In this document: positions 7,101 to 13,100 of the stretch, one piece after another | Layout of the letters: each line of letters begins with the position of its first letter | Numbering within the stretch: position 1 is the stretch's first letter | UHGV virus genome: UHGV-1799016 | Origin: a virus | Length of the DNA stretch: 25,786 nucleotides | Direction: 5' to 3' (one strand) | Position numbers and translations under genes: made by a program | Notes under the pieces: model-generated | What the model saw: only the letters and a program-made list of their open reading frames with translations | Told to the model about the DNA's origin: nothing | The model's database searches: none

Positions 7101-10100
7101 TATGGTTTCTCCTTCGGAATTCGCGGATGCAGAAGATGCAATTGACGTAGATGAGTACAAGAATACTCTTGCGGAACATATACGTCAAGAAATGGAGGAG
7201 CGCAAGTATGCAGAGATGCTGAAAGCAGCTGAGGAAGCGCAAGCGAATGAGGTTGAGGAGGGAGAAGTGGAAGTCCCCGCAGTTGAAGGAGAATCAACGA
7301 GCGAAGAAGAAAAAGAAACCCCTAAGGTCAACGAGGATAGGGAACAATCAAGTGTGTTCAGCGGTGCATTTAATGTTGGGGACAAGTTTACAACAGACGA
7401 AGGCACGTTTGAGGTGGTACAGCTTACAGAGGGTGAAGCCCCCATTGTGCAGAATGTTGAGACAGGACAACAGTTCCGTCCACACTCTGAGAGGGACTTG
7501 CGTGCAGCCGTGCAATCTTACACGCCTGCTTTTATAGATGGTGCGGAAAATAAAGAAGGTCACAGCGTCTATAAACGAACAGTCGACAGTGGGGATGCTT
7601 CGAATAGCAATACTGAAGAAGCCGAGCCTCAACGAGGAAGGCATCTTTCAGAGGAGGAAGCTCGTAGATTATTGTCGACAATGGAGGAGCGGATAAATGA
7701 TGACACCTTTATGCCCGATGTCATTGTAAATGTAGATGGTATTTTGCACTCGATTAAAGTCGAAACCTCTAACAATGGAACACTTGACTATTATGTAGCC
7801 ACTGAGACAGGTGAAGCATCTCCAGTTGAAGCTTTAAGTGGATTTGACCATATGAATTTCTCCGGAGATTCAGGGCGTCGGACTGTGTTGGGTATGCTAT
7901 CGAAATATCCCATTGAGCAGATAAACGAACGCTTGTTGGGTTTTGAGACTAGCGAAGAAGAGACAGAGAACACTCAGCAGGAAGAAGCAGAAAACCCTTC
8001 TGAATTCGAAAACAACGAGGTAGAAGAAGCAGAGGAAGCTGAGAGACAAAAGGCGGACGACGTAGAAACAACAAGTTCTACAGTTAATCCTCCTGTCGAA
8101 GAAGTTCAATCAGCCCTTGATAAAGGTGAAATAGACGGTATTACACCCCAAATGGCGCACGATGCCCTTTACAATGACCCCGATTTGGAAACAGAAGAAG
8201 TTGATGCTATTGTAGAGAATAGCCGTTCAGCTGCGCAGGGAAACTTGGCAAAACTGCAAAAGGCCGAAATCAAACCGCGAAAGAACGAGAGTGTAATCGC
8301 GTTTAAGAAGCGCAAAGCAGCACATATTGTTTCTTTAGCACACGCAGAGGAACTTGTTCGTTTCTGGGAAAAGGTGCAAGAACATCGCAGAAATCTAGGC
8401 GCACAAGCTATGCAGGAAGAAGAAAGCGCAAAGCAACAGCGAGAAGCGGAAGCTGCAGAGCGCGCAAAGGAGCAAGCGGAAAATGGCTTGGCGGTTGCTC
8501 CGTCTTGGGCTAATGCTGAAAAGATTGTAGGACGTCCAGGCGAATTTATCACACCTAACGGACTGCGTGTGAAAGGACACTACGTGCTAGTGGAAAGCGG
8601 TGCTGCTGTTCCTTCGCACGATGCACGCCACGGCTTTAAACAGTCGGAAGGATTCCCGACTGATGAGAAGGGACGCACGCTCAACGATAGAGACTACGAA
8701 CGAGATTTGGACGCTCAACGTGTGCAGCGTGAAATCGCTAGAAACTATGACGCTCGCGCAACGCAGCAGCCAGTGGTGGTATCTCCCGAAGGTTTTGTGC
8801 TTTCGGGCAATGGTCGCACAATGTCTGGAGACTTGGCAGCGATGGAGAATACGGATGGTGCATATAACAGTTATGTTCGCGAGTATGCTGAAATGTGGGG
8901 CTTCACTTCAGATCAAGTAGAAAAGTTGGAGCATCCACGTGTTGTGTTTGTTTCTGATAATCCCCTTCCTCTCACAACGGAGACTTTCGCAGCGTTCAAC
9001 GCGCAAGAAACAAAAACGCAATCGCGCACGGAGAAGGCGGTGAAAATGGGTAAGGCGGTATCTGATGAGGACTTCGCCAAGATTCTTCGTGTTGTTACCG
9101 ATGGGCATGAGACATTGGCAGATTTTTACGGCAATATGTCTGGTGTGAGCGAGGTTATTAACTTGCTTGAGACGAGTGGAGTTATTACTCAACAAGACCG
9201 CGCAAACTTGTTTGATGGTGATGCGTTGAGTGATGAGGGACGCAATTTGCTAGAGAATGTATTGTTAGGTAAGGCTTTTGAAGGCAACCCCGATGTTGTT
9301 CGTCAGCTATCGGAGGTGCGCTCTCTTCGTACTTCTGTGCTTAATGCGCTGTTTTACATCGTAGAGAACGAACGCCTTAATGAAGAATTCCGCCTAGGGG
9401 ATGAGTTGTCACGCGCTATTAACTTTGTTTACCACGCTCGCAAGGGTGGTGGCTATTCTTTTGGCGATAAAGTTCGTACCTTTGCCCAACAGACGGAGTT
9501 GTTTGAATCGACAACGGATGTATCTTTAGAGGATGCAACGGTGCTTTTGTTGGCGGATGCCCTCAATGATAAGCGTACTACCTTAGTTAAGTCAATCTTC
9601 AAGAGTTACAACGAGCGCGCAGAGGACGCAGGTAGGGGACAAATGTCGTTGTTTGGCGATGCCCTCCCCTCACGTGAGACCTTAATCAAGGAAACACTTG
9701 TGCTTCTCGGTGTCGACATCAAAGACTATGCTCCGTCGAACCAAGTAGAACCCTCAAACCAAGAAACAAATGAACAAGAACCAAAACAGCAGCAACAGCC
9801 AGAAGCAGGAACAAGCGAATCCACAAGCGAACAAGGAGCTGAAGGAAAGACAGAAACTGAACTTCCTTCTGGAAGCGTTTCGACAAGCGGACGCGGAAAC
9901 GAAGGAGTAAGCACGGAGGAAGAGGGCGTAAAACCGTCTGATAAGAATGCGAAACCATCTGAAAAGAGTACTGAGAAGGGTGAGAAGGGTGAGAAGGCTG
10001 AAGACATCGAGGTGGACGCGAGTGCAGAGAAAGAATCTGCCCCCTTAAAAGAAGAAGGAATAAATGAGAACAGTAGAGGGGGCAGCCTGCAGGATGAAAA

Positions 10101-13100
10101 AGAGAAAGACAAAGCTGGCAACAAGCTAACAACACGGCAACGAGTAACCAAAGCGAAAGAAAGAGGTGGAAGAGAGTGGATAGATACCCTTCGAACAACA
10201 ACTGATGCTCATTATTTGCGTTTGGCAACAGATGTTGGCTATATATCTGCCCCTGAGGCGCAGGCTATTATACGGAATCCGCACACAAAGGATGACGTTT
10301 TGAATCTGCTGCTCCGCAAATTAGAGGCTAATTATTTCGACCTTTATCAGACTGATGTGGCGGAGGATATGGCTCGTCGCAATCTTTCAGCAGAAGATTT
10401 GCAGCGTCTTTACGACATTGCGATGAAGGACCCTCGTGCCTATCGTTTCTATAACGCTTTGGATGCAATCGCGCAAAACAAAAACACCCCTGAGTCTGTA
10501 TTGGATGAGCTTTATAAGCGTGCGATTAAAGAAAGACGTCGTTTGGATAAAGACGGAAATTACGTAGATCTTGGATTAAGATTGGCTCAAAACCCTAGCA
10601 CGAGCGAATCTCACCTCCGTACTTTAGCTTTAACCCATGGCGAAGATGTGGCAAAGAATCCGAGTGCGCCTGTTGATTTGTTACGCGTCTTTGCTACAGA
10701 AAAAAAGTCCCCTTACGGTAGCTATTATGCTTTGCGTGCGGCTGTTGCGCAAAACCCGTCTACTCCAGCCGACCTTCTATTGGAGATACTGAGAACGTCT
10801 GATAGAGAGGAAGCTGCGGTCGAATATGCGGTGAAACATCCCAGCCTTAAGGGGGCTGACTTGGAGCGTGCGGCAGAACTTGCGTCGAATCCTTCTATCT
10901 TTAACAACCCCAATATTACCGATGAGTTACTCGAGAAGTGGGCAAGTGTCAAGGGCGAAACTAAGGCAGTTAAGACTTTCGCTTCCTTAGCCCAGATTGA
11001 ACTAGATAAACGCAGAACATCAAAGGCGGAGGAAGGAAAAGCACACCTTACAAAATCTCAACGAGAGTTGCTCGAGCTTGTAAGAAATCCGAACGCAACA
11101 GCGGAGGAGCTGCAGCGCGCATACGAAGGAGAATACTACGACAAGGATGATGCGAAACAAGTAAAGAAGGCTAAGGAGTTAGCTAAGGTGCGCGAAGAGG
11201 TTGTTCGCGCTGTTGCTGCGCACCCTAATGCGCCTTCCACTATTTTGTATGAAATTTACTATTCTGAAGGCGAGGAAGACCCAGAGTTGCAGCGTATTAT
11301 TGAGAGTCGCAAAGATGATACTATTGGTGAAGACATCCTTGGCTCGAAACCGAATGGTAGAATTCGCGAACAACGAGTTGGAAAAAGTGATATAGTTGTT
11401 GGGCAAACTGTTTTTTTCAGAGGTACGCCATGGAAGGTAGAATCTGTAAGTCCTAATGGGAAACTGACAATCACGACAGAGATTAGTGGACATGTGCTGC
11501 GCCATGAAAATATACTCCCGAGATGGGTGCGTTTGGAGCCAGTAGAGGAAAAACAATCGGACAAAGAACTCAGCCATGCGAATAATACAGTGTCAGAAGA
11601 ACAAGGCGACACTAAATCCGCAAGGGAGAGTGACAGTGAAGCTTTGAACTCTATAGAGTCGCGAGATAAAGATTATGCCGATGCTGTTGCGCGTGGTGAT
11701 ATTGAAACAGCTGAGAGAATGCTTGCAGAGGAAGCGGAGCGCAAAGGGTATTCTCTGGATAGTCCTTATCAAGGCGAAAGTGCATTTAACGGTAAAGCTC
11801 CGTCTGATTCGGGGTATTACGAAAATGCGGAAGAGCGTAAAAAAGCTTATGACGAGGGTGATTATGAAGGTGCTTGGACACTCGCGGATGAATTAGTCCA
11901 CGGTGTAGATGTGGGGTCTTTGGTTGATTTCCGCCTTAGCGATAATGAGTTGAGGCGTGCTAATGATATGACACGCGAATCTATATTAAATTTGCGTGAG
12001 GCGCTAAGGAAGGCTCGTTCTGGCGAGAAGAATATTACTATCAAAATGTACCGCAGTGTTCCCCCTGGAGTAAAGGAGCGTGAGTTTCGTAACGGAGACT
12101 GGATTACCCCCAGTCGTTTGTATGCGCTGGATAACGCTGAAATACACGAGGGGTATGAAGGTGAGAATCAAGAAGGGTGGAATGGTGGCTATCGCATCAT
12201 AGAACAGGAAGTTCCCATTGAGGATGTTTGGTGGGATGGTAATGACGTCAACGAGTGGGGCTATGATAATGGAGAGAGAGAGGCTTATCGTAATACGGAA
12301 AACAATAGAAAGACTTTTTCTGTTACTTACGATAGTGAAGGTAATCTTATTCCGCTGTCTAAGCGATTTGATGAAACAAACTCAGATGCTCGATATTCTA
12401 AGGGGGGAGAGCAGCGTGTATCTAATGAAAACGCTTTGGACGGTGTATCTCCAGAGCAGATAGAACTGCGAGATGGTCTTGTTGATATTATGCGCGATGC
12501 TGGCATGGACGTGAGCGTGAGCGATGCTGAGGGGCAACGTGTGTTAGACTTAGCAAGGGGCGCAACGATAGAAGCTGATGCGGTGAGAGAAGCGCGAGAG
12601 ATAGAGCGTGTTAATGCGGTGTTTAATGATGAGCTAGATGCTTTCTCGGAAGATAATGCTAATCGCATAATATTTAGCCTTGGGCGTCCCTCTGAAGTGT
12701 TACGTGCTGCTGGAGTGCCGGATATGCCAATGAAGCTTTATGGCAGTAAGCTCCTTAAGAAAATCAAGAAGCACGGCTTTGATAAGGTAGCCTTGCGCGA
12801 TTTGCCACGTGCCGTGGCAAACCCTATTGCTGTGTTCAACAATCGTAAACAAGAGGGCAATCGCGCCATCCTTACAGAATTGCATACTGAGCAAGGGAAT
12901 GTGCTTGTGGCGATTGACCTTGGCAAAGGTGCTGACGTGGACTTTAATGTTGTGAGTAGTGTGTTTGGTAAGGGGAAAAATGGCGTGGTCGAATGGATAA
13001 ACAAGAGACAATTCACGTATGTAGACGAAGAGAAAGCTCTTAATTATCTGCACTTAGCCGCACCAATCGCGGCAGCCTCAGACAATCAAAAGCTTTCTCT

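Follow-up and report, generated by a model that had tools for sequence, protein, structure and literature searches.

A predicted disordered, length-variable acidic linker in a giant putative polyvalent protein of a viral genome

Organization of the locus

The window analysed here is the whole stretch of 25,786 nucleotides (nt) from the virus genome UHGV-1799016. It contains a giant open reading frame (ORF), and we describe an acidic linker of about 130 residues within the encoded protein, the short in-frame DNA repeats that the linker carries, and the modules on its two sides. The features concerned are as follows (aa, amino acid positions of the giant protein).

4150..17475, + strand: giant ORF of 4441 codons (a 13,326-nt gene), uninterrupted, from the ORF list and its translation
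7228..7350, + strand: acidic linker A, aa 1027-1067, 39% D+E, 12% hydrophobic residues
7948..8079, + strand: acidic linker B, aa 1267-1310, 41% D+E
8488..9741, + strand: module before the linker, aa 1447-1864, a ddrB-ParB-like domain plus a helical domain, from AlphaFold2 and homologues
9742..10125, + strand: acidic linker, aa 1865-1992, predicted to be disordered, from AlphaFold2, composition, insertions and deletions (indels), and blastn breakpoints
10132..11361, + strand: module after the linker, LRV helical repeats, from a Pfam LRV_2 match and an all-helical AlphaFold2 prediction

Judged by its sequence, the giant ORF encodes a phage polyvalent (multi-effector) protein: it strings several catalogued effector domains in one chain and is encoded by a phage among virion genes. 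Pfam searches identify LPD38 (110 bits, aa 4130-4326), ART-PolyVal (72.6 bits, aa 3070-3196), MuF_C (61.1 bits, aa 2870-2963), and LRV_2 (40.3 bits, about aa 2190-2220, with the segment scanned alone). A ddrB-ParB match (23.6 bits, aa 1471-1596) is below the cut-off of 27.6, and homologues of the module that contains it carry PF18763. PHROG 14770 matches the last ~1100 residues (aa 3328-4430). Full-length relatives of about 4505, 4768, and 4810 aa are free of interruption as well. The polyvalent proteins catalogued by Iyer, Burroughs, Anand, de Souza & Aravind in 2017 occur in phages and conjugative elements; they likewise string DdrB-like ParB, MuF-C/PBECR, ART, LPD38, and HEXXH domains in one chain, are encoded among phage virion genes, and vary in architecture between close relatives (PMC5512222).

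The linker is predicted to be disordered

Residues 1857-1994 contain 24% D+E and 13% K+R, giving a net charge of -15 and an isoelectric point (pI) of 4.5, and their coding strand is 70% purine. The residues W, F, Y, I, L, V, M, and C together account for 8-9% of the linker as against 27% of the whole protein, and the grand average of hydropathy (GRAVY) is -1.68. The linker belongs to aa 1856-2010, the longest run in the protein that is poor in hydrophobic residues; depending on the boundary used, the linker is 128-138 residues long, at 42-45% along the chain.

An AlphaFold2 run on aa 1440-2250, with an alignment of 42 sequences, places neither helix nor strand in model residues 426-553 (aa 1865-1992), where the predicted local distance difference test score (pLDDT) is 27-39. 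Immediately before the linker, model residues 8-425 (aa 1447-1864) reach a pLDDT of ~90, and a helical repeat runs from model residue 556 on, with a pLDDT of 55-70. The predicted disordered interval (nt 9742-10125) nearly coincides with 9720-10130, where an earlier sequence-only reading of the window had placed an acidic low-complexity linker. That reading proposed disorder prediction as a check and named an ordered structure as the outcome that would speak against it; the linker is predicted to be unstructured. Low hydrophobicity together with high net charge, and an unstructured prediction beside folded neighbours, are both characteristic of disordered linkers.

Two similar acidic linkers had been suggested at about 7230-7350 and 7950-8080, and both are recovered by composition as linkers A and B. 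The suggestion that the main linker separates the N-terminal and C-terminal halves of the protein holds in that it lies between modules; the chain is, however, one of many modules, and the linker is one of several joints. Searches of the window for non-coding RNA (Rfam) and for tRNA returned nothing, and a non-coding RNA reading was rejected on that ground.

The linker contains an in-frame 9-bp tandem repeat

Direct reading of the window gives GAGAAGGGT at nt 9973-9981, GAGAAGGGT again at 9982-9990, and GAGAAGGCT at 9991-9999. Units 1 and 2 are thus identical and the third differs from them by a single G>C, so that the earlier description of "exact repeats" at 9973-9999 fits the first two units and is slightly overstated for the third. 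The repeat shares the reading frame of the ORF (9973-4150 = 5823 = 3 x 1941) and encodes E1942-A1950, EKGEKGEKA, as had been quoted. In Tandem Repeats Finder it spans 9972-10001 (period 9, 3.3 copies, 95% matches), with an imperfect period-21 repeat at 9920-9968, just 5' of it.

The 9-bp (base pair) repeat is far beyond chance expectation. Tandems of period 9 that span 27 nt or more and contain no more than one mismatch appeared in 0 of 300 dinucleotide-preserving shuffles of the window, in 0 of 1000 shuffles of the ORF codons, and in 2 of 20,000 shuffles of the 138 codons of the linker itself. A collagen-like G-X-Y repeat was considered and rejected as too short, there being just two consecutive G-E-K triplets.

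The extra unit might be an artefact of assembly or sequencing, as the coverage of the window contig is low (~4x), or the region might code on the opposite strand, where long antisense ORFs exist. However, a clean in-frame 9-bp duplication is atypical of short-read error, and the 13,326-nt gene with three units also occurs in a second assembly, where its upstream flank is different. This assembly, ENA ERZ28659700 (scaffold_60, 40,133 nt; L023 below), carries the same 4441-aa protein in identical gene DNA; the three-unit allele is thus present in two assemblies, which might both stem from the same reads. Coding on the opposite strand is countered by antisense translations that are low-complexity mirror images, by indels that all keep the sense frame, and by a ratio of nonsynonymous to synonymous substitution rates (dN/dS) of 0.19 in the sense frame. 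Either possibility is extremely unlikely.

The antisense ORFs over the linker lie at 9719-10228 (169 aa) and 9726-10151 (141 aa), both on the minus strand. Their translations, rich in Leu, Ser, and Phe, simply mirror the purine-rich sense strand, and the ORFs are therefore most likely spurious.

In L023, the giant gene (13.3 kb) plus 2 kb downstream is identical to the window. In the 634 nt 5' of the giant gene (locus 1-634), an ungapped position-by-position comparison gives 30 mismatches, to which an indel offset could contribute. The sequence just 5' of the giant gene may therefore differ between otherwise identical phages.

Repeat copy number and linker length vary among relatives

The relatives compared are the IMG/VR viral contigs L012, L013 (identical to L012), and L014; the metagenome loci L004-L008; L021, which is on a 2.76-Mb metagenomic contig and is therefore taken as a prophage; and the proteins P0194 (4768 aa) and P0195 (of the L014 type). 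Rescans of IMG/VR by peptide and DNA pattern returned the same three contigs. Four sites in the linker differ in length between the window and these relatives.

9775..9777, + strand: (CAA)n slip site, one copy in the window and two or three in relatives (NEQ, NEQQ, or NEQQQ; NEQP in L012), from DNA alignments and P0194
9931..9972, + strand: imperfect 21-bp direct repeat, two units encoding KPSDKNA and KPSEKST, from Tandem Repeats Finder and alignment
9973..9999, + strand: 9-bp tandem repeat, three units encoding EKG, EKG, and EKA, with two units or one in relatives, from alignments
10051..10056, + strand: (GAA)2 slip site, (GAA)3 in L012, L004, L005, and P0194, from alignments

In DNA alignments, L012/L013 and L004 show a gap of exactly 9 bp and hence two units of the 9-bp repeat. 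One EKG of the window is missing from the L005 and P0194 proteins, which therefore have two units as well, L014 has two diverged units (QNA-KET), and L006, L007, and L008 have a single unit followed by unrelated sequence. At the 21-bp repeat, L006 and L007 have one recombined unit, and L014 is short by 12 nt. All four sites vary in-frame, with whole-unit changes at three of the four, and unit-sized copy-number differences between close relatives are characteristic of slippage-prone repeats.

The sequence-only reading predicted slippage-driven length variation at the 9-bp repeat and proposed a comparison of homologous loci, in which an identical count throughout would have spoken against it. 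The count is not identical: it is three, two, or one across the relatives. The variation itself is thereby established, and slippage or unequal recombination is the mechanism that we infer for it. Since units 1 and 2 are identical in the window and the more distant L014 has two units, the sequences are most simply read as the recent gain of one unit by duplication in the lineage of the window. Slippage repeats in low-complexity coding regions likewise change in length by whole units and in frame when close strains are compared, at short direct repeats that are perfect or near-perfect; the copy numbers here (1-3) are, by comparison, very low.

Copy number that differs between strains could also point to a contingency locus, which would switch the downstream half of the protein on and off. 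However, the unit is 9 bp long, all changes are multiples of three, the frame is kept in the loci without frameshifts, and one to three copies is far below the number in classical contingency repeats. An in-frame unit never breaks the reading frame, and a phase-variation switch is effectively refuted; we give it next to no credence.

Indels are concentrated in the linker. Three of the nine short indels relative to L012 fall in this 3.2% of the protein (binomial p = 0.003), six of the nine fall in hydrophobic-poor segments generally (p = 0.003), and a comparison with P0194 shows enrichment likewise. In the 257 aa of the upstream module that adjoin the linker, no indels were found among four close relatives. 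The dN/dS rises from 0.05 upstream of the linker to 0.19 within it and 0.39 downstream, and the identity of the linker to that of L012 is 95%. The constraint on linker length is thus clearly relaxed, and the constraint on its sequence only mildly so.

The acidic tract might instead be active itself: it could mimic DNA or serve as an anti-restriction decoy, or its polyanionic character could hold the DNA-binding ParB-like module away from the packaged genome. A net charge of -15 over 128 residues (25% D+E), the strong conservation of its first ~70 residues among relatives, and a neighbouring module that resembles a DNA-binding or nuclease ParB domain are consistent with such an activity. However, K+R residues (13%) are interspersed with the acidic ones, and the charge density of the known DNA mimics Ocr and ArdA is well above that of the linker. 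In addition, the length of the tract is not conserved, its C-terminal third is replaced in relatives, and distant homologues of the upstream module have linkers of unrelated sequence, or none. We consider an activity of the tract itself very unlikely.

Homology breaks off in the linker, where modules differ

Homology to relatives in blastn, running from about nt 8093, stops within the linker: at 9935 in L014, at 9946 in L006, L007, and L021, and at 9980 in L008. In L014 (IMGVR_UViG_3300006251_000176), a second copy of ART-PolyVal replaces the ~400-aa LRV module right after the linker. The extra copy occupies aa 2194-2412 of the L014 giant protein, and the regular copy is retained at aa 3008-3240. 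The extra copy is 85% identical to the window ART (aa 3002-3224) and 85-91% identical to the ART of the window and P0194, whereas the regular copy is just 58% identical to the window ART; the extra copy is closer to the ART of the window and P0194 than to the second copy in its own protein. In L006, L007, and L008, the linker is followed by an unrelated ~110-aa helical module, an acidic stretch, and an SH3-like module. The LRV module is absent or replaced in L014, L006, L007, L008, and L021. Because homology stops in the spacer and a different module follows, we take the spacer as a site where modules have been exchanged without damage to a fold.

Linker B behaves in the same way. The block 7560-8092 (aa ~1137-1314) is without blastn homology in all seven relatives compared, although its flanks have 80-91% DNA identity; the relatives carry different sequence there. 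In all seven, homology is lost at 7552-7559 and returns at 8093, where acidic linker B has its 3' edge. Against L012, the linker B region has 34% identity with many gaps, and the divergence between the window and L012 is a mosaic along the gene. The low-complexity joints are therefore the points of module exchange. The role as a module-exchange junction, read from these homology breaks, is an addition to what the sequence-only reading had predicted. Elsewhere in the gene, L021 (BNJT01002365.1) carries additional coding sequence of ~5.8 kb (WH_1, DUF8437, and Helicase_C; locus 2900-8600) between the SH3-like and MuF_C regions. Its fragmented gene calls possibly result from assembly frameshifts.

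The module before the linker also occurs on its own. A protein query restricted to the flank returned 73 homologues at 42-51% identity (a query spanning the linker gave only four fragments). Most are free-standing proteins, 460-570 aa in length and with PF18763, to which the module has 45-50% identity, and it is therefore an autonomous unit. The free-standing homologues end soon after a shared ...YN..A..A..GQ.D/SLF... helix region, and the fused homologues P0005, P0061, and P0075 have a different polar linker at the same place. In metagenomic elements the module is occasionally fused to a PF18823, MuF_C, or FtsK-like domain. A representative search with the LRV module gave mostly repeat-level matches, together with P0194 at 94%.

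The linker as a flexible tether between modules

Taken together, these results make it likely that independent modules are joined here by a flexible, disordered tether, whose repeat-rich DNA is prone to slippage or recombination and which can accommodate changes in length as well as the grafting of new modules. The ~130-residue acidic spacer would tether the ddrB-ParB-like module upstream to the LRV helical-repeat module downstream. Its purine-rich, low-complexity DNA, with at least four short in-frame direct repeats, would gain and lose units by replication slippage or unequal recombination. Such a spacer would give a beads-on-a-string layout, in which the modules could act independently and could be stored and threaded through the tail one by one, with the exact spacer length only loosely constrained.

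The suggested role of the spacer in packaging and ejection draws on analogy with N4 and crassvirus proteins. The N4 gp50 virion RNA polymerase is likewise a protein of several thousand residues, with globular units that are flexibly joined by extended linkers, one of them of ~100 residues, and with a beads-on-a-string model of its ejection (PMC13434306). In contrast to the present case, packaging and ejection are experimental for gp50 and suggested by gene context here, and no repeat polymorphism is reported for gp50; we found no sequence or domain relationship between the two proteins. Crassvirus cargo proteins have been proposed to unfold partially for passage through the tail (PMC10172136).

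The giant protein is probably packaged in the virion and ejected, to judge from its MuF_C domain and from the genes around it. The neighbour directly upstream resembles a known internal virion protein.

2163..2675, + strand: gene resembling T7 internal virion protein gp14, from Pfam PF24072 (27.2 bits, cut-off 27, E = 4.4e-6)

Downstream of the giant gene lie an SU10-adaptor-like gene and a tail-protein PHROG, and several structural-region PHROGs are found among the neighbours.

Several points weigh against the tether interpretation. The AlphaFold2 alignment has almost no depth over the linker; the low pLDDT is therefore by itself weak evidence, and it is composition alone that corroborates the predicted disorder. 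The sample is small, with about six independent relatives, and L004, L007, L008, and L021 have frameshifts or fragmented gene calls, for which reason they were kept for repeat counts and breakpoints and left out of the substitution statistics. Nor does the linker evolve freely, as its identity to L012 and its dN/dS indicate, and over its first ~70 residues all eight relatives are almost unchanged; this N-terminal conservation could reflect recent common descent or a sequence-specific function. The change in copy number is observed, and slippage and unequal recombination are the mechanisms that may underlie it. Finally, it is the gene context that suggests packaging and ejection.

The linker is a further example of an already known type, a probable disordered spacer and slippage hotspot. 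Disordered, repeat-bearing linkers are expected in giant multidomain proteins, and a 9-bp difference of one unit is without demonstrated consequence. The value of the present case is that joints coincide with homology breaks at which an LRV repeat, a second ADP-ribosyltransferase, or a helical module is swapped in or out, so that the shuffling of modules in arrays of anti-host effectors can be seen concretely and checked. Whereas the text of the polyvalent-protein catalogue is without the words "linker", "low complexity", and "disordered" (PMC5512222), the joints are located here and are length-polymorphic. The linker boundaries also offer practical cut points for the expression of single modules.

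A candidate peptidase domain and a recurrent junction motif

Three further features of the giant gene bear on how its product might be processed.

13738..14184, + strand: ~145-aa HEXXH domain, aa 3197-3345, with HEYTH at aa 3236 (nt 13855-13869), from conservation and AlphaFold2
11362..11379, + strand: junction motif IREQRV, aa 2405-2410, directly before the SH3-like module, from a motif scan
14287..14304, + strand: junction motif IREQRI, aa 3380-3385, after the HEXXH domain, from a motif scan

In the HEXXH domain, H40, E41, H44, and E91 are invariant in 20 homologues, many of which belong to polyvalent-type proteins. The AlphaFold2 model of the domain (pLDDT 87) has strands at residues 8-11, 17-22, and 25-28, followed by a helix at residues 35-53 that bears the HEXXH motif. 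A HEXXH helix, a downstream Glu, and a preceding three-stranded sheet are the sequence and predicted-fold features of zincin-like proteins. Pfam gave no hit to the domain, and fold searches gave no significant structural match. The domain is, on the predicted model, a candidate zincin-like processing peptidase, and it may represent an uncatalogued zincin-like family.

The motif [IV]REQR[VI], whose copies lie precisely where interchangeable modules have their N-terminal edges, occurs twice in the window as against 0.07 copies expected (p ~0.002). It is also found at aa 2195, 2396, and 3751 of L014, where it stands at both ends of the extra ART copy, and at aa 2468, 3266, and 3705 of P0194. For L006, L007, and L021, homology to the window sets in again at nt 11368, within the IREQRV copy, and the main linker of the window ends in a degenerate version, TTRQRV. 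The codons vary by site (CGC GAA CAA CGA, AGA GAG CAG AGA, and AGA GAG CAG CGT), indicating that the conservation is at the protein level and not DNA microhomology. The motif was not found in the giant proteins of Bacteroides phages and is therefore lineage-specific. As a sequence pattern it might be a cleavage or docking signal; if it is a cleavage signal, it would show how the giants come apart after injection.

A segment of about 250 extra residues (aa ~3279-3526) is present in P0194 between the ART and HEXXH domains, starting after ...DIREQRVW.

Compatible with a spacer is the proposal that the linker is mainly a proteolytic site, at which the protein's own HEXXH domain or a prohead protease would cut, setting free the ParB-like N-terminal part and the effectors downstream of it as separate proteins, either ahead of packaging or once the protein has been ejected. 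The conserved HEXXH domain, with its invariant downstream Glu and predicted sheet-plus-helix core, is consistent with this proposal, as are the recurrence of [IV]REQR[VI] at module junctions, its amino acids kept with different codons, and the TTRQRV at the end of the linker. In the proposal of Iyer et al. 2017, polyvalent proteins are cut into their separate units by metallopeptidase domains, and the ParB-like prototype, DdrB of P1, undergoes processing ahead of its packaging (PMC5512222). Processing as the main function of the linker is a tentative alternative, possible but on the whole unlikely, and a flexible tether is the reading that we prefer. Doubtful, and more so than processing, is an extension in which the linkers and [IV]REQR[VI] together form a modular joint system, the motif marking the cuts made by the HEXXH domain or a head protease and the linkers providing substrate and recombination ground.

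Relationship to cultured phages and other observations

The nearest cultured relatives of the C-terminal ~1000 aa are proteins of the Bacteroides temperate phages BS-TP4 (gp3, 5391 aa) and BKO1-TP3 (gp55, 5553 aa, annotated "DarB-like antirestriction"), at 32-34% identity; with BF1-TP2 included, the C-terminal part has 30-34% identity to these phages. As in the window, the BS-TP4 and BKO1-TP3 giants have polar low-complexity segments (40-98 residues), and each is encoded by a ~16-kb gene adjoining the portal gene in the head/tail region. Their linkers differ from those in the window in being less acidic and of unrelated sequence, and the REQR-type motif is lacking. The relatives of the window seem to be prophages of gut bacteria. 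Searched as DNA, positions 9000-11000 matched none of 50,697 phage records, and scans of isolate genomes with a protein pattern and with a 29-nt invariant linker motif found nothing and no cultured host.

At the left end of the window, an ORF at 896-1861 on the minus strand, opposite to the structural genes, has a UbiA prenyltransferase match (87.9 bits); it is unusual cargo for a phage, or possibly flanking host DNA. Positions 21001-23000 have a G+C content (GC) of 0.56-0.58 versus ~0.47 elsewhere, over the ORFs at 21671-22387 and 22397-23485.

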